From the NCBI GenBank assembly GCA_034520215.1, contig JAXHNR010000001.1, forward strand, positions 732,560-796,559: DNA of 64,000 bases, in the 5' to 3' direction. Under the pieces are notes generated by a model that was not told the origin of the DNA, searched no databases, and saw only the letters and a list, made by a program, of their open reading frames with translations. Of the stretch, positions 3,017 to 63,291 are shown in pieces. The position numbers and the translations under genes are program-made. The stretch is from Candidatus Krumholzibacteriota bacterium. GTDB lineage: Bacteria > Krumholzibacteriota > Krumholzibacteriia > Krumholzibacteriales > WJIX01. Numbering within the stretch: the first letter of the stretch is position 1; every line of letters starts with the position of its first letter.

Positions 3017-5304
3017 TGAAATATTTTATTCTATTGATTGCCGCGGCAGTTATATTTCCCGGTTCAGTGGTCCGCGCTGATATAAACTGGGATGTTTATA
3101 TATCTCAAAGCAAGGTAAACGCGATAGAGGTGGTGGGGGATAGTCTATGGTGTGCTACGGACGGCGGAATTATGCTGTTTGACAAGGGTGATTCGGTCTA
3201 TACCTCTTATTTAAACGGTCTTGAATTACGATCGAGTAATGTGGAAGCGGTTACTGTTGACGCGAATAATGATATCTGGGCGGGATTCAGAGGACACGGT
3301 GTAGCCCGTATAAGAAATACAGGGCAGGAGGCGAATTGGTATACGGAAGAATACGGTTTAATAAGTGACAGTGTAACCTGTATAGCCAATGTAGATAATG
3401 AAATATACTATGGGACAGTGAAAGGTATAGGTAAATTTGTGGAAAAGATTCCTTCAGGGGAAATGGTGCTTACAGATAGTTTGAGCGGTTCAACTATAAA
3501 TGATATTTTTGCTGTCAACGATACTATTTTATGGGTAGCTGGTTCGGACGGCGTGTCGAGATTCAACAGAGAAAGTTTTGATTATGATTTCTTTCCTCTC
3601 AGCAATGCTGTTTCTCTATGCTCTTTTAACGGTAATATTTATTGTGCCACAGACAGCACCATACAGTTTTTAGATGACGGAAAGTGGTCAGTGTTGGGAT
3701 TTCCCTCCGGCCCCGACAAATATCCGTTTGTTGCTGTAGCCTCCGGAGGCGGGGAGCTCTTTTGTATAACAGCGGACAGACTTTATAATTGGGACCTTTC
3801 ATCATCTGTATGGCGGAGCGTTGATTTCGTAGGAATGAAGGGTTTATTCTATTCTGAATATAAATTATCTGGGAGGTTCAATCTGAGAGCCCTTGGTATT
3901 GACAATGCGGGTATGCCCTGGATTGGCGGTGATAGCGCGGAGAGACCCGGAAGAGGAGTACACATCTGCTCTTATGACGGAGGCGCATGGATAACGAGGA
4001 ATCCGGGAGGACTTAATTCTAATATAATCAGAAGAGTCGATATGGACCCCGAGGGAGGGGTATGGGTTAGTACGACTTTTTTTGGAGTTTGTTATAATTC
4101 AGGGAATGACAACTGGATTTCATATATAGATTCCCTGTCCTATCTCAATTATAACATTGCTCTTATCTGTGATTCAAACGGAAGGCTGTGGAGTAGCGCG
4201 CTTGAAAATCCACTTGATATGGTTGAACTTGGAGAACGGCTTGTTGCTGAAGATGACAGGTGGAATAGATTTACCAGAGATGAAGACGGAATATCTTCGA
4301 GGCATATAAATATCGCGGAAGACCCCGCCGGTAATATCTGGTTTCTTTCTGATGACGATTATCCTTCGAAAGGATGGGGGATAGATATTGTAAACGCGTC
4401 CGCGACCGAGTGGATAAGTATAACACCGAGTAACAGTGATATTGCAGGAGGCAATGTAAGGGACTGCGTTTTTGATGGTTCCAGCGCTTATCTGGCTATC
4501 AATGATTACGGCGTTCAAGTGTGGAACACAGGGGGATTTGAATGGTCATCACTTAAGGATCGAAGTGATGATTATTGGTATACTGCTGTTGATCAAACAG
4601 ATCTTTCAAGTACTGAACTGAACGCTCTTGAGATTATTGAAGATAATTTATGGGTGGCGAGCGGGGGAGAATTATTGAAACAGGGTAGTAGTGGAAATTT
4701 GATAATATACACAAGCGATTTGACCGATGAGAAGAGGAAGATATTAAATAATGAGGTAAATGATTTAGATAGGGATGATTTCGGGAATTTATGGGTTGCA
4801 ACAAGCGCCGGATTGAATATTATTGACAAGAATGGTGAAGTTAAGGGAATTTATACGACTTATGATTACTGGAAATCTAATTTTCAGATCACATATCCCA
4901 ATTCAGTGATTTCACCCCTTCCCGATGCTTATTGCAAATCCCTTGCTTTCGATGGAGTGAACGACAAAATGTGGGTTGGAACGGGGAAAGGTATCGCCGG
5001 TATTGATATGGGAATTCTTTCACCGGAACAAAGCCCCCTTTCGGAATTATTTCTTTATCCAAATCCGGTATATTGTCACAACGGTGATGATGAACTGAAG
5101 ATTTCTGGTATATCGGGCATTGTGGATGTGGAAATTTACAATATCGAAGGAGAGCTTGTACACGAAAAGGAGAATATTTCTGACGGAGAAGTGATATGGG
5201 ATATTCTTACAATTAATGGATTTAAGGTCGTCTCCGGCATATATATTGTTAGGGTTATCGGAAATAACAGTTCAGAGATAAGAAAGGTTGCGGTTGTCAG
5301 GTGA
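3016..5304 (+). CDS. Secreted beta-propeller protein (Reg_prop/Y_Y_Y-type repeats) with a Por/T9SS-type C-terminal sorting domain
   Basis: Signal peptide MKYFILLIAAAVIFPGSVVRA. Repeated blades of the form IWAGFRGHGVARI, IYYGTVKGIGKF, LWVAGSDGVSRF. The C-terminal roughly 80 aa (LFLYPNPV…IEGELV…SGIYIVRVIGNN…RKVAVVR) matches the Por_Secre_tail pattern (YPNPF…G.YFY.V). Confidence 0.6.
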   Translation: MKYFILLIAAAVIFPGSVVRADINWDVYISQSKVNAIEVVGDSLWCATDGGIMLFDKGDSVYTSYLNGLELRSSNVEAVTVDANNDIWAGFRGHGVARIRNTGQEANWYTEEYGLISDSVTCIANVDNEIYYGTVKGIGKFVEKIPSGEMVLTDSLSGSTINDIFAVNDTILWVAGSDGVSRFNRESFDYDFFPLSNAVSLCSFNGNIYCATDSTIQFLDDGKWSVLGFPSGPDKYPFVAVASGGGELFCITADRLYNWDLSSSVWRSVDFVGMKGLFYSEYKLSGRFNLRALGIDNAGMPWIGGDSAERPGRGVHICSYDGGAWITRNPGGLNSNIIRRVDMDPEGGVWVSTTFFGVCYNSGNDNWISYIDSLSYLNYNIALICDSNGRLWSSALENPLDMVELGERLVAEDDRWNRFTRDEDGISSRHINIAEDPAGNIWFLSDDDYPSKGWGIDIVNASATEWISITPSNSDIAGGNVRDCVFDGSSAYLAINDYGVQVWNTGGFEWSSLKDRSDDYWYTAVDQTDLSSTELNALEIIEDNLWVASGGELLKQGSSGNLIIYTSDLTDEKRKILNNEVNDLDRDDFGNLWVATSAGLNIIDKNGEVKGIYTTYDYWKSNFQITYPNSVISPLPDAYCKSLAFDGVNDKMWVGTGKGIAGIDMGILSPEQSPLSELFLYPNPVYCHNGDDELKISGISGIVDVEIYNIEGELVHEKENISDGEVIWDILTINGFKVVSGIYIVRVIGNNSSEIRKVAVVR

Positions 5305-42170: not shown

Positions 42171-43214
42171 ATGTATAAACGTTTTATAAGAGATCCGTTA
42201 ACTGTCAGGATTTTTGTCAAAATTGTACTTGCCTCTGCCGCGGCATTTATTTTCTTTAGTTGTTCCGAGGACAGTACTGAACCGTCCAATTCTGTTCCAG
42301 AATTGACTACTGCTGAAGTTATTGATATAACAGGTACTACCGCGAAATGCGGAGGAGTGATTACCTCTAGTGGAGGAGCAAGTGTTACGGCGCGGGGAGT
42401 ATGCTGGAGTGTTGAAGAGCTACCCTCCCTAGAGGATAGTACGACAAACGACGGGACGGGGGCAGGCAGTTTTACCAGTGAAATAACAGGGCTGACAGCT
42501 GAAACTGATTATTATATAAGGGCGTATGCAGTAAACAGCGCTGGAACAGGTTACGGAGACACAAAGGAGTTTTCTACTACAGTATTCGGTACCGTGACGG
42601 ATATAGACGGCAACATTTATGAAACAAGAAAAATTGGGAATCAGTGGTGGATGACAGAGAATCTTAAAGTAACCCATTACTTGAACGGGGATTCGATAGC
42701 TGAAGTAGAAGACGGAGCAGTATGGGATGGTCTGGCAGGTGGCGCGTGCTGCAATTACGACAATAATGCAAGTTACATAGTTACTTATGGAAAACTATAC
42801 AACTGGTTTGCTGTAAATGACAGCCGTGGTTTAGCCCCCGAGGGCTGGCATGTGGCAAGCGACGCGGAATGGCAGGAATTAGAAATCTTTATGGGTATGG
42901 ACCCTTCAGAAGCTGCAGATACGGGATATCGCGGAACGGATGAAGGTGGCAAACTAAAGGAAGCCGGAATTGAAAATTGGGCAAGTCCCAACACCGGAGC
43001 TACTAATGAAAGCGGTTTTACGGCTTTGCCGGGAGGTTACCGGGGGCTTGGTGGTGATTATTCTAGTATCCACAACTCCGCTTTATTATGGGTTACTACA
43101 TCGATAACTGAAACTTTCGCCTGGAGTAGAATGCTCAGTTCATCTGATGGATACATTACGCGTACTGGTAGAGATAAGAATTCTGGTTTTTCGGTCCGCT
43201 GTGTAAAAGATTGA
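42171..43214 (+). CDS. Lipoprotein with a Fibrobacter succinogenes major paralogous domain (Fib_succ_major, TIGR02145)
   Basis: Lipobox FFSCSED and an Ig/Fn3-like N-terminal domain. Hallmarks: GNIYETRKIGNQWWMTENL, KLYNW.A, PEGWHVASDAEW, and the terminal GFSVRCVKD. Confidence 0.7.
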   Translation: MYKRFIRDPLTVRIFVKIVLASAAAFIFFSCSEDSTEPSNSVPELTTAEVIDITGTTAKCGGVITSSGGASVTARGVCWSVEELPSLEDSTTNDGTGAGSFTSEITGLTAETDYYIRAYAVNSAGTGYGDTKEFSTTVFGTVTDIDGNIYETRKIGNQWWMTENLKVTHYLNGDSIAEVEDGAVWDGLAGGACCNYDNNASYIVTYGKLYNWFAVNDSRGLAPEGWHVASDAEWQELEIFMGMDPSEAADTGYRGTDEGGKLKEAGIENWASPNTGATNESGFTALPGGYRGLGGDYSSIHNSALLWVTTSITETFAWSRMLSSSDGYITRTGRDKNSGFSVRCVKD

Positions 43215-43375
43215 ATCATCGCCCGCATACTGTTACAAATCATCGACTGCCTTATAGGTTATAAAAATTGGAGAAACTCCAAAATATAAATAGACTTGAC
43301 AGTTGTTGTGTATCTGCTTTAGTTTTCGGATAGATATGTGCCGCGCATCAATATGATTTCCTGATTGGGGGTGCT

Positions 43376-44539
43376 ATGAAGCTGCGTTGGGAGAAGTTGC
43401 TTGAGCTGGCCCGGGGAACGGAAAAGCAAAGCAAAAAAAACAAATATTCCACGTCTGAAAAGGAACTAGTTGAAGGAAAAACAACACCTGAAGAAATACT
43501 TTCCTTTGCCGAAGAACTACTCGAGAGAAAAAAAAGGAGTGAAGCTGAAGAATTATTCATTAATCTTATATCAAACCCGGATATTAGCGAATCAAATCTG
43601 GCAAAGGTATGTGGTCTCCTTCAGGAAATCGGTAATTACGAGGCGGCTTATAAGGGTTATTCAGAATTAAGAAGAAGAGATGAAATGAACGCCCACCCGA
43701 TTTATTGTATGGGTAAAATTTTTGAGATTGAGGGCAAGTTATCAGACGCTATAAGATTGCACCGTGAAGCTATATCCGTAGAGCCCGGCAATCCGGAGTG
43801 TTATTTCAGGCTTGGAGTGGCATATACAAAAAACCATCAGTACGAAGAAGCTGAAAAGTGTTATAGACAGGCAATCACACTTGATCCTACTCATTCTAAA
43901 TCATATACAAATCTTGGCTATATACTCGATATGCACGGCAAACAGGATGTTGCCATGCAGCAATTTCTAAAGGCAGTCCAGCACAACCCAAAGAGCGCGG
44001 AGGCTCATTTCAACCTCGGCGCTCTCTTCGGGGATGACGGAAACAAGCAGCAGGCTATTAACGAATTCCGTGTCGGACTTGAACTTTCACCGACCTGTGT
44101 TGAAGGACGTTACAACCTTGGAATGGCACTTGTTAATGAAGGTCATTATGAAGAGGCGATGGAGGAATTTAAAAAGATTTTAAAGATTGAACCTGATAAT
44201 GTTAATGCTTTCTTCTATATAGGATATTTATACTTTCGTAAGGGCCTCTATGGAAAGGCGCTGAATTATCTTCGGCGTGCTTCAGAGTTAAATCCAGGAA
44301 ACACTAAAATACTGTTTTACGTGGGGGAATGCTTTAACAACTTGGAGCGTTCCGAAGAAGCACTTGGATATTATAAAGAAGTTGTTAATATAAACCCCCA
44401 TGACAAGAAAGCCTATTTCAGTCTTGCTGTAACGTATGAAAAACAGGGGTATATGGGCAAAGCCCGTGAGTGTTATAAAAAAGCGGCCAGTGGAAGGGAT
44501 GTGAGGCAGAAATCGATAAAAAGAGGAATTCTCGAGTGA
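43376..44539 (+). CDS. TPR-repeat protein
   Basis: Multiple canonical TPR units (…AHFNLGALF…, …GRYNLGMAL…, …AFFYIGYLY…). Confidence 0.6.
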   Translation: MKLRWEKLLELARGTEKQSKKNKYSTSEKELVEGKTTPEEILSFAEELLERKKRSEAEELFINLISNPDISESNLAKVCGLLQEIGNYEAAYKGYSELRRRDEMNAHPIYCMGKIFEIEGKLSDAIRLHREAISVEPGNPECYFRLGVAYTKNHQYEEAEKCYRQAITLDPTHSKSYTNLGYILDMHGKQDVAMQQFLKAVQHNPKSAEAHFNLGALFGDDGNKQQAINEFRVGLELSPTCVEGRYNLGMALVNEGHYEEAMEEFKKILKIEPDNVNAFFYIGYLYFRKGLYGKALNYLRRASELNPGNTKILFYVGECFNNLERSEEALGYYKEVVNINPHDKKAYFSLAVTYEKQGYMGKARECYKKAASGRDVRQKSIKRGILE

Positions 44540-61372: not shown

Positions 61373-61735
61373 GTGGAAGAAAAAGTTGTTTTAAAGGGTA
61401 TAACGGTATTCGGTTATTACGGAGTTTCTCCAATTGAAAGAAAAATCGGCCAGAAACTTCAGATCGACGTTGAATATTGTCATGATTTTACTAAGGCAAG
61501 CATGACAGATTCTCTCGAGGATACAGTTAATTACGAGAGAGTATATACTAAGATAATGCAGACTGTTGAGAATAACAGGTTTAATTTACTGGAAACACTT
61601 GCTGACGCGATATGCCGTGAAGTACTTACTAATTTTCCCGTTTCTAAGATCAGGACTGAGATCCGTAAGTTGACCTTACCTTTTCCAAATAATTTATCAC
61701 ATGTTGCCGTTGTTATCGAACGAGAAGCTGAATAG
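61373..61735 (+). CDS. folB: Dihydroneopterin aldolase
   Basis: GTG start. LKGITVFGYYGVSPIERKIGQKL…EY fits the FolB tunnel fold. Length is 120 aa. Confidence 0.8.
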   Translation: MEEKVVLKGITVFGYYGVSPIERKIGQKLQIDVEYCHDFTKASMTDSLEDTVNYERVYTKIMQTVENNRFNLLETLADAICREVLTNFPVSKIRTEIRKLTLPFPNNLSHVAVVIEREAE

Positions 61736-62258
61736 CGCTGTACATATTGTTACACTTTCTCTCGGGTCAAATCTGGGGGAAAGGGAATCCAATATTATAG
61801 GTGCTGTAAAGGCTATGAATGATTTAGACAACTTCAGTCTGAAAAGGCTTAGTTCACTGTATGAAACAGAGCCCGCGGGAAGCGGTTTTTCCGGGACATT
61901 TATCAATTCAGCCGCCGTATTCGAGGCTGACATAGCTCCTTACGAATTATTATCTCTATGCAAAAAGCTCGAGAAGAGATTTGGCCGAAAAGAGGGATTG
62001 GACAGGCCTCTGGATATAGATATCATTCTGTATGGAGAAATCTTAATTAACAAACCTGATTTAAAGATTCCTCATAAAATGTTTAGGCAGAGATCTTTTG
62101 TGCTCGAACCTATGCTGGAAATATGCCCGTATTTTAAGGTTCCCCCGGATAATATGACCGTAAGTGATATCGCCGAGAGGATGCCTTCATCGGGTTGGGT
62201 CAGAAAGGTATCTTCGAGATCTTTTATAAACACCAGTTCACAGCTTTTAGACAGTTAG
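61701..62258 (+). CDS. folK: 2-amino-4-hydroxy-6-hydroxymethyldihydropteridine diphosphokinase (HPPK)
   Basis: VHIVTLSLGSNLGERE…LYETEPAG…RPLDIDIILYG matches the HPPK consensus. Overlaps folB by 35 nt. Confidence 0.8.
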   Translation: MLPLLSNEKLNSAVHIVTLSLGSNLGERESNIIGAVKAMNDLDNFSLKRLSSLYETEPAGSGFSGTFINSAAVFEADIAPYELLSLCKKLEKRFGRKEGLDRPLDIDIILYGEILINKPDLKIPHKMFRQRSFVLEPMLEICPYFKVPPDNMTVSDIAERMPSSGWVRKVSSRSFINTSSQLLDS

Positions 62259-62261
62259 TTG

Positions 62262-62568
62262 GTGGAGTTTCCCCAATTTTTATAACCTATAAGGTAGTCG
62301 ATGATTTGTAACAGTATGCGGCTGATTGATATTTTCAAAATCGTTGTCGGTTTCCCCGGCGAGGAAACCGCTGGCTCTGCGCCTCGGGCTCGCTCTTTCT
62401 GCCCCTTCGGGCCAGAAATCCTTGCCCGCTCGCCCTCCGGAGGGTTTTGAAAATATCAATCAGCCGCACTCATCAGCAATGAAAGCCCTATTCCACTTAC
62501 CAATCCTGATAAATGATAGTATCTCGCAATGTTATTACAATACTTGCCGAATTTTCGGGGAAACTCCA
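62262..62568. mobile_element. MITE-like non-autonomous insertion: 9-bp target-site duplication, 12-bp terminal inverted repeats, internal perfect 23-bp inverted repeat flanking a GC-rich structured core
   Basis: The direct repeat AGTTAGTTG appears at 62253-62261 and again at 62569-62577. The terminal inverted repeats are TGGAGTTTCCCC (62263-62274) and GGGGAAACTCCA (62557-62568). The internal inverted repeat GCGGCTGATTGATATTTTCAAAA (62318-62340) pairs with TTTTGAAAATATCAATCAGCCGC (62445-62467). The 104-nt core is about 65% GC and contains the palindromes GGTTTCC…GGAAACC and CCCTCCGGAGGG. Confidence 0.5.
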
Positions 62569-62616
62569 AGTTAGTTGTTGTTGACACAGGTGCTAATTTT
62601 AACTACCGTAACAGAT

Positions 62617-63291
62617 ATGAAAGATTTTAAAGAAAGATTAGTGTCAGAAGGAGTTAAATATATAGCAATAGAGGGGAATATAGCATCGGGAAAGACTACT
62701 CTCTCGCGTTTGATTGCCGAGGAGACCGGGGCCAGGCTTTTTCTGGAACAGGTGAATGACAACCCGTTTGTGGAGCAATTCTACGATGATTTTGAGGGAT
62801 ACGCTTTTCAGACTCAGATATTCTTTCTCTTAAACAGGTACAGGCAGCAGGTAAAGATAGCTCAGCAGAATCTTTTCGCGGAGCTTCTTGTCGCGGATTA
62901 TTTATTCGATAAGGACAAAATATACGCGCATGTTGTACTCGGAGACGAAGAGCTCGGGCTGTATACAAAACTTTGTTCTTTGCTCAACGGGAAGATTGTC
63001 CGTCCTGACCTCGTTGTATACCTCCAAGCTGATACCGAAGTTCTTATGGAAAGAATAAGGAAAAGAGGGCGAAGTTTTGAAAGAAATATTGAAGAGGAAT
63101 ATCTAAAGAATCTAAATGAGGCATTCAATCATTTTTTCTTTCATTATGATGATTCCCCTCTACTTATTGTAAACACGGATCAACTTGATTTTACTAAAAA
63201 CAGAGAACACCTCAATGATTTTTTCACACAAATTGCTGAGAGGTTCGAGGGAACAAGATATTATGTTCCTTCATGGGAGAATGATTTCTGA
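62617..63291 (+). CDS. Deoxynucleoside kinase (dAK/dGK/dCK family)
   Basis: [16 protein letters not shown]-loop, the ERS-like …[10 protein letters not shown]…, and the lid RKRGRSFE. The ATG at 62617 is more plausible than the TTG at 62575 called in the ORF track. Confidence 0.75.

Follow-up and report, generated by a model that had tools for sequence, protein, structure and literature searches.

A probable recent insertion of a miniature inverted-repeat transposable element at the folK–dNK junction of a Krumholzibacteriota genome, from a new family with apparent targeting upstream of promoters

The Correia (NEMIS) elements of Neisseria and the ERIC/IRU elements of enterobacteria are intergenic miniature inverted-repeat elements, which form long hairpins when transcribed and can affect the expression of their neighbours; to our knowledge, none of them is found at a set distance upstream of −35 boxes. 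MITEAba12 of Acinetobacter, a miniature inverted-repeat transposable element (MITE) of 113 bp, makes 9-bp target duplications, which 40% of its copies carry, is mobilised by ISAba12, a co-resident insertion sequence (IS) whose termini (GGCTTTGTTGC) its own termini match, and favours AT-rich targets with no positional pattern (PMC6382973). Here we describe a MITE of 308 bp (307 bp if its terminal A is assigned to the target) at positions 62262–62569, plus strand, of a stretch of 64,000 nucleotides from a Candidatus Krumholzibacteriota genome (contig JAXHNR010000001.1), the whole of which we call the window. The element lies between folK and a deoxynucleoside kinase gene (dNK). Very probably it is a non-autonomous transposon with terminal inverted repeats (TIRs) that inserted recently, its tip placement relative to promoters included, and it belongs to a MITE family previously undescribed in Krumholzibacteria, with apparent targeting to sites upstream of promoters.

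Like MITEAba12, the element is short and non-coding, has TIRs and a 9-bp duplication, occurs in many highly similar copies and is presumably mobilised in trans. Copies that still have their duplications amount to about 7 of 11 complete copies in the present family, against 40% for MITEAba12. The family is set apart from MITEAba12 by its larger size (about 306 bp), by a conserved structured core in the form of a GC-rich hairpin module and, above all, by its fixed position upstream of promoters; its termini (TTGGAGTTTCCCC) are also different, and no partner was found in the loci searched. The likeness to the Correia and ERIC/IRU elements is that of intergenic miniature inverted-repeat elements with long hairpins. 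In contrast to the present family, Correia elements duplicate TA and have 26-bp termini, and there is no sequence similarity to either Correia or ERIC/IRU.

The insertion is most directly seen by comparison with relatives that have an empty site. A first-pass annotation of the window, made by a model from the letters and open reading frames (ORFs), had reported a 9-bp direct repeat whose left copy contains the folK stop codon. This 9-mer, AGTTAGTTG, is indeed present as the left (62253–62261) and right (62569–62577) target-site duplications, and these two element flanks are its only occurrences in the 64 kb; since 7 of 100 shuffles of the sequence also gave at least two occurrences, the pair alone is weak evidence. 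The annotation had also suggested searching for an empty folK–dNK junction with a single 9-mer, and such a junction is found in L002, a Joint Genome Institute (JGI) contig with a dNK that is 97% identical in amino acids and 95% in nucleotides. The L002 junction reads ...gacAGTTAGTTGttgttgacac... / ...ttttagacAGTTAGTTGttgttgacacagg..., with AGTTAGTTG occurring once, exactly at the insertion point, and with a folK–dNK spacer of 42 nt. The orthologous junctions of L003/L004 (dNK 95% identical) and L005 (dNK 89% identical) are also short, with the element absent. The window differs from the empty site by exactly 307–308 bp plus one extra 9-mer, the pattern that transposition with staggered target cuts leaves. 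The insertion is younger than the separation from L002 (~5% of nucleotides). The combination of direct repeat, TIRs and inner repeat is far beyond chance, as established by the empty sites and by ~20 other copies. Insertion and family membership are thus direct observations, and a cut-and-join mechanism is suggested by the termini and the duplication. The Logan contig L001, from the same strain and 100% identical over 1470 nt, begins at window position 62531 in the right arm of the element, in what looks like a short-read assembly break at a repeat. By breaking metagenome assemblies in this way, the element matters for the binning of Krumholzibacteria.

The TIRs are longer than those first proposed. 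The 12-mers TGGAGTTTCCCC (62263–62274) and GGGGAAACTCCA (62557–62568), which the annotation had placed immediately inside the direct repeats, are perfectly complementary (12 of 12 nt), but on the left a single extra base, G62262, stands between the repeat and the 12-mer, and comparison with sister copies gives a true terminal repeat of at least 15 nt, TTGGAGTTTCCCCAA, common to ~20 copies. The window element has GTGGAGTTTCCCCAA as its left TIR (62262–62276, plus strand) and TTGGAGTTTCCCCGA, on the minus strand, as its right TIR (62555–62569). The duplication can be read as 9 bp, with the element at 62262–62568, or as 8 bp, with the element at 62262–62569. Inside the TIRs lie a left arm (62277–62316) and a right arm (62469–62554), both plus strand and subfamily-specific in sequence. 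They enclose a perfect inner inverted repeat, which is of 24 nt and not 23 as annotated (left arm 62317–62340 and right arm 62445–62468, plus strand). Between its two arms is a core of 104 nt with three hairpins (62341–62444, assigned to neither strand), as rich in GC as the annotation had it: about 65–67% in all, or ~0.67 compared with roughly 0.35–0.45 in the flanks. Among the internal parts, this core is the one best conserved in subfamilies A, B, D and E, which are described below.

The fold of the whole element is strong relative to shuffled sequence (z-scores of −7.6 and −9.5 for the two strands), as is that of the inner unit (about −7.3 to −7.5), with the right-to-left strand reaching −86.3 kcal/mol at z = −7.5. 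The ORFs of the element are all short and have no Pfam match, and the 82-aa ORF, already regarded as not credible, is frameshifted by a 2-nt indel in the aligned sister copies. The element is therefore classed as a MITE on its size below about 600 bp with no coding capacity, on its TIRs, on its target-site duplication relative to an empty site (AGTTAGTTG twice here, once in L002) and on its dispersed copies (at least 14 loci in the genome JAWODM01, 5 in JGI metagenomes and 2 in the window). REP, BIME and REPIN sequences, which consist of a palindromic unit of 20–40 nt with no target duplication and with an associated RAYT transposase, do not fit the 308-bp unit with terminal repeats and target duplications; no search aimed at a RAYT transposase was made.

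Scanning one genome per species with the left-end 23-mer gave 14 further loci, all in one metagenome-assembled genome (MAG), Candidatus Krumholzibacteriales bacterium BLK5-2.bin.162 (JAWODM01), which is a different genome from that of the window. A metagenome scan gave five true members (L026, L031, L033, L036 and L038, all from JGI metagenomes), and 14 further metagenome matches to a pattern that allowed a T variant were due to chance and were discarded. In viral contigs the core pattern had 0 matches and the terminus pattern 9, all of them chance matches without the element body. The family comprises ~20 further copies in at least five subfamilies. Subfamily A has five copies, with mutual identities of 96.7–98.4% and 90–91.5% identity to the window element. 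Subfamily B has seven full or contig-cut copies, six of which are 97.7–99.3% identical to the reference copy and one (L007) 92%; over the first 208 nt the subfamily shares 84% identity with the window element, and the core-less copy L012 and the truncated copy L018 are also of this type. Subfamilies C, D and E are single, more diverged copies. Common to the subfamilies are the first ~25 nt of the termini and the core, with arms that are largely unalignable. The target duplications, mostly of 8–10 bp, vary by copy: AAATGAAAA in L019, CCCCGGCAG in L016, AATTAATTC in L011, TACCAGAC in L010, TAAATGGTTT in L008, and AAAATTAYCGG with one mismatch in L013. The other copies with the same termini that the annotation had asked for thus exist in JAWODM01 and in metagenomes, and their different duplications, together with the empty sites in relatives, uphold its mobile-element reading.

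The window element is 90–91.5% identical to the MAG copies of subfamily A, whereas the dNK genes of the two genomes are only 70.7% identical in nucleotides. The family has therefore moved between lineages by horizontal spread. An ordinary conserved intergenic regulatory region of 308 bp, not mobile, could be imagined from the position between two genes of related metabolism and from the strong fold, but this has practically no chance of being correct. It is already refuted by the empty sites, as the junctions of three close relatives are without the 308 bp, while ~20 unrelated loci carry it with flanking duplications, and the between-genome identity (90–91.5%) is far from that of dNK (70.7%).

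The second copy in the window is a remnant, a solo left end of 59 nt on the minus strand (43223–43281), which is 96.6% identical to 62263–62321 and ends where the inner hairpin would begin. In the region 43214–43325 the remnant starts right after the stop codon of a gene with a Fib_succ_major domain (42171–43214). The orthologous locus L039 (63% identical) has the same neighbours with no Fib_succ_major gene between them and no element, which places the remnant at the border of a rearrangement or of a gained gene.

To describe where the copies lie, we took as left tip the tip with the AATTTTTAT arm, read outward, and scored the promoter motif TTGA[ACT]N-N16-18-TAnnnT with its start 11–14 nt from the tip. 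The motif is found at this distance in 13 of 20 independent left tips, or 14 once a 12-nt junction duplication in L016 is removed, against a background of 0.13% of positions (binomial P about 3e-33). The fitting left tips are those of L006, L008, L009/L013, L010, L011, L012, L014, L015, L017, L026, L031, L038 and the remnant (at 43282), and all of them have TTGAC or TTGAA/TTGAT followed 16–18 nt later by TAnnnT. The right tips have the motif in only 1 of 11, which is the folK–dNK copy, CTCCAA-gttagttgttg-TTGACA-N17-TACCGT-N7-ATG(dNK), where the spacing is the same but the tip is the right one. In promoter coordinates the tip falls between about −47 and −50, and the 9-bp duplication spans about −38 to −47. 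The motif promoters fire away from the element, and the first ORF or tRNA past the motif is in most cases also directed away from it.

At the folK–dNK junction the putative native promoter of dNK (62581–62609, plus strand, recognised as a motif) consists of TTGACA at 62581–62586, a spacer of 17 nt and TACCGT at 62604–62609. Its −35 box starts 11 nt from the right tip of the element and its −10 box ends 7 nt before the ATG, and the motif is kept in the dNK locus of the MAG JAWODM01 as well as in all three empty sites (L002, L003 and L005). The tip of the remnant is 13 nt upstream of TTGACA (43296–43301)-N18-TAGTTT, the predicted promoter of a TPR gene at 43376, and this promoter, TTGACAGT, is conserved in L039, where there is no element. 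Since the motifs are present in sites without the element (dNK and TPR), they belong to the host target DNA and not to the element. Over the window as a whole the gene strand has 11 occurrences of the motif and the other strand one, with 5 of the 11 within the 7% of the DNA that is non-coding.

Such a distribution might also be left by random insertion, or by a preference for AT-rich or bent DNA, if selection then retained the copies that spare gene and promoter or that modulate expression. At the folK–dNK junction the stop codon is only about 6 nt away from the −35 box. Almost any survivor there must therefore hug the promoter, and for this one copy selection could be explanation enough. The genomes are also compact (93% of the window is coding). 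Many transposases prefer AT-rich, bendable DNA. AT-rich targets are likewise favoured by MITEAba12 (PMC6382973). However, eight promoter-adjacent copies have 89–537 bp without an ORF of at least 100 aa on their far side and still have the tip within the 4-nt window; the tolerated position was therefore not the sole option. In addition, the 97–99% identity within subfamilies leaves little time for differential loss, and no sequence is common to the duplicated 9-mers, nor are all of them AT-rich (e.g. CCCCGGCAG). The same (left) tip faces the promoter in 14 of the 15 promoter-adjacent copies, a 14:1 bias in orientation that is not predicted by the avoidance of gene disruption. We therefore regard this selection-based explanation as somewhat unlikely, and within the overall explanation the choice of target by the transposition machinery is, by a modest degree of confidence, favoured over selection after insertion.

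Three further arrangements were seen near predicted promoters. In L013 (605–1262) a subfamily-B copy lies between divergent tRNA genes (605–677 on the minus strand and 1178–1262 on the plus strand), with its left tip 14 nt upstream of the predicted promoter for one of these tRNA genes. In L014, once its junction duplication is subtracted, the right tip is 12 nt from TTGACT-N18-TAGAAT, giving promoters at both ends of the copy. In L019 (1111–1145) a solo terminus-like sequence of 18 nt, CAGGACTTTCCCCAAAAA, stands between the subfamily-A copy and a TTGACT promoter box and could be what is left of a previous insertion at that promoter.

Transposons that find their targets through a landmark, either fixed or in the form of a bound protein, include yeast Ty3 (RNA polymerase III start sites), Tn7 (next to glmS), IS1397/ISKpn1 (REP sequences) and group IIC introns (after terminators). 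The present family resembles these in the set distance from a signal, in the orientation bias and in having no conserved sequence at the insertion point, and differs from them in that its landmark would be a sigma70-type promoter (the −35 box). We know of no bacterial inverted-repeat transposon with such a landmark. In a limited search of full-text literature, none was described that is placed at a set distance from a promoter, and the literature on promoter-targeted bacterial insertion yielded only cases of activation by IS5, along with MITEAba12.

The inner part of the element is conserved as a hairpin module. Alignment of 14 inner units gave a consensus fold with three supported parts, a closing stem of 22 bp, a hairpin of 12–13 bp (GTTGCGGTTTCC...GGAAACCGACAAC on the right-to-left strand) and a hairpin of 9 bp (TTTCTGCCC...GGGCAGAAA). 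In this fold 97.2% of the cells are paired, compared with 39–51% in slid controls, and 15 of 54 pairs have changes on both sides, compared with 8.3 ± 1.1 in shuffles, none of which (0 of 500) reaches 15. The covarying pairs include nine in the closing stem, which the inner inverted repeat forms, and four in the long hairpin. The outer stem of subfamily E, though entirely different in sequence, is still nearly perfect, and one pair runs from G-C through G-U to A-U across subfamilies. G-U pairs number 33 on the right-to-left strand versus 10 on the other, a weak indication given that the structure was predicted on that strand. The variants of L009, L013 and L015 lend no support to a pseudoknot between GGCGAG in the loop of the first hairpin and a downstream CTCGCC. 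Taken together, the covariation suggests that compensatory changes have preserved the inner hairpin and one hairpin of the core, and that something maintains the pairing in a single-stranded form, either RNA or DNA.

The first-pass annotation had considered that a second palindromic element might have been captured by the MITE or have landed in it. In this case an inner palindromic MITE, made of the 24-bp repeat and the GC core (62317–62468), would have inserted into an older outer MITE. There are variants that suit it: the GC core is absent from L012 (subfamily B), where only a 17-bp stem with a 5-nt loop is found (GCGGCTGAGTGATTAAT-ATAAG-ATTAATCACTCAGCCGC), the core is flipped relative to the arm types in subfamily C, and core and arms evolve at different rates. 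However, deletion at the hairpin tip and inversion between the repeat arms explain the core-less and inverted forms equally well. The inner repeat has no flanking duplication in any subfamily, and its outer part differs in subfamilies A, B and E while the core stays 87–89% identical, which does not fit a conserved transposase-binding end. A covariance model of the inner unit matches only inside full elements; it gave no stand-alone copy and no additional match in the window. The remnant at 43223 extends 5 nt into the inner repeat, and truncated copies stop at or inside the hairpin. A two-element origin is thus quite improbable, and the nested core belongs integrally to the family and is conserved in it, with no sign of a second element that landed by chance. 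Beside these variants, L012 (7369–7842) also has a degenerate subfamily-C copy, 13 nt beyond the core-less B copy, and it is in this copy that the C core is inverted relative to the arms.

Alternatively, the core may be a functional structured RNA, a small RNA or a cis-acting one, carried by the MITE and transcribed right to left, in the direction of the gene of the adjacent promoter. This would account for the covariation in the long stem and in the hairpin GTTGCGGTTTCC...GGAAACCGACAAC, for the commoner G-U pairs right to left (33 vs 10, with the G-C/G-U/A-U pair among them), for the stable fold of that strand (−86.3 kcal/mol, z = −7.5) and for a core kept across subfamilies with unalignable arms. 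On the other hand, a DNA hairpin would give the same pattern, the strand asymmetry is small and biased by prediction on that strand, and L012 does without the core while subfamily C has it inverted. No known RNA family was recognised, as the annotation had suggested checking: Rfam 15 gave no match in the whole window at the gathering threshold, and the best match to the element at permissive E-values was Atu_C7 (23.3 bits vs a threshold of 45), on the other strand, a generic hairpin with a T run. The cores of subfamilies A, B, D and E (four sister loci) gave no Rfam match either, with only two flanking tRNAs recognised. Around the core there is no convincing promoter or terminator, and the annotation's idea of a terminator or outward promoter supplied by the element finds no support, as the scans of the element stay at chance level, with one weak terminator-like and two promoter-like sites (9/12 matches) within shuffle expectation, and a weak hairpin and T run at the left terminus (−1.9 to −7.6 kcal/mol). 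We consider an RNA role of this kind unlikely.

The class of the responsible transposase is only loosely indicated. IS families with duplications of 8–10 bp include IS256, IS1, IS4, the IS903 group of IS5, ISAs1 and ISLre2. The duplications of the present family (8–10 bp, mostly 9) are compatible with IS256, IS1, IS4, IS903-group and ISAs1-type transposition, and their length decides nothing among these. The termini have GGAG at positions 3–6, loosely like the G-rich termini of the IS256 type, and match no IS terminus known to us. An all-against-all comparison of the loci gave no shared repeat of IS size. The ORFs beside the truncated copies L026 and L036 have the look of HD-domain, small-GTPase and RecR-type proteins and not of transposases, from a reading of the translations only, with no domain search.

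In the mechanism that we propose, a transposase encoded elsewhere would bind the termini of ~15–20 bp (TTGGAGTTTCCCCAAwwwTT) and make staggered target cuts ~9 bp apart, and after joining of the element the repair of the gaps would duplicate AGTTAGTTG. At the present locus the element went into the 6 nt that separate the folK stop codon from the dNK −35 box and left both genes and the core promoter intact. Over the family insertion points are non-random, with the tip set 11–14 bp upstream of a sigma70-type −35 hexamer and usually with the left tip toward the promoter, and the transposition complex may use the promoter as a landmark, through promoter-bound RNA polymerase or sigma or through the TTGAC box. 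The 24-bp hairpin and the GC core would then be a conserved cis module that acts as a folded single strand, RNA or DNA. Our most specific proposal, which is tentative and which we hold at rather less than even confidence, is that the family and its unseen transposase constitute a bacterial inverted-repeat transposon with sigma70-type promoters as integration landmark. It would dock on RNA polymerase/sigma or read the −35 box, centred at ~−43, the position of a class II activator, in a preferred orientation, as a counterpart of yeast Ty3/Tf1, and the hairpin module would be either required in cis or an RNA delivered beside promoters.

Several points weigh against this explanation. As the annotation had noted, there is no transposase in the window, nor is there one in any fetched locus (roughly 200 kb), and no autonomous element, sought as a pair of family termini 1–3 kb apart, was found in the window and the ~200 kb of fetched loci; enzyme family and mechanism can therefore only be inferred. 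L007, L009, L014 and L015 are complete and yet have no duplication, as expected if copies have recombined with each other. The left tips of L007, L018, L019, L033 and L036 (and of L016, if uncorrected) do not have the 11–14-nt spacing. The folK–dNK copy is opposite in orientation to the 14 others, and therefore the orientation is a bias and not a rule. The family-wide promoters are themselves motif predictions. Finally, covariation among close repeats can be inflated by shared ancestry, and conversion between the arms of a palindrome could give covariation without function.

The insertion alone would be an ordinary, near-neutral MITE event in an uncultured phylum. If insertion is truly measured from the −35 box, it would show how a bacterial transposon can locate safe havens through the promoters that it reads, and the copies would be a natural marker of promoter positions in a phylum without transcription data. 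The responsible transposase could then be of interest for promoter-proximal DNA insertion.

The genes around the insertion were assigned with Pfam as FolB, HPPK (folK) and dNK. The folK gene (61701–62258, plus strand; PF01288, E=5e-31) ends with the stop codon TAG at 62256–62258, which is intact inside the left target-site duplication. The dNK gene (62617–63291, plus strand; PF01712, E=3e-42) encodes 224 aa from the ATG at 62617, in agreement with 224-aa homologues, and the near homologues of the protein are in uncultured Krumholzibacteria. In the stretch 62575–62619, the recorded gene call of the identical strain (P0001, 238 aa) has a TTG start within the right target duplication, while relatives start at the ATG 62617 (224 aa). 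As the −10 hexamer ends 7 nt before this ATG, the mRNA from which dNK is translated may be leaderless or nearly so. The insertion spared the stop codon of folK and, for dNK, the −35 box, the −10 box and the start, and the DNA upstream of about −47 of the dNK promoter is now supplied by the element. The insertion is expected to be close to neutral for the locus; a change in dNK expression is possible, as a predicted effect only.

In the MAG JAWODM01, folK and dNK are on separate contigs, each beside a subfamily-B copy. In the region 173–830 of L018, the left tip of a truncated copy lies 37 nt past the folK stop codon, and in the region 1163–2204 of L007 a full copy ends, on its right, 49 nt upstream of the −35 box of dNK. 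Both are on the same sides and in the same orientation as in the window, though the closer relatives of the window have empty sites, and this arrangement reflects either recurrent insertion in the neighbourhood or an old insertion followed by rearrangement.

Some copies have irregular junctions. In L016 (about 3515–3540) CGGCAGTTGGAG is found in tandem twice across the left tip junction, and in L014 (about 2725–2752) CCAACTATAAT is found in tandem twice across the right tip junction; both tandem duplications may be repair footprints. L009 (1–327) and L013 (712–1038), two places on the same MAG contig, share 21 nt of left flank and the element at 99.4% identity and then diverge, which is probably an assembly artefact at the repeat, or else a recombinant copy. 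In L018 (1–172) the truncated copy is followed, up to the contig end, by a GC-rich stretch that would encode a low-complexity peptide rich in His and Arg and that may be a chimeric contig end.

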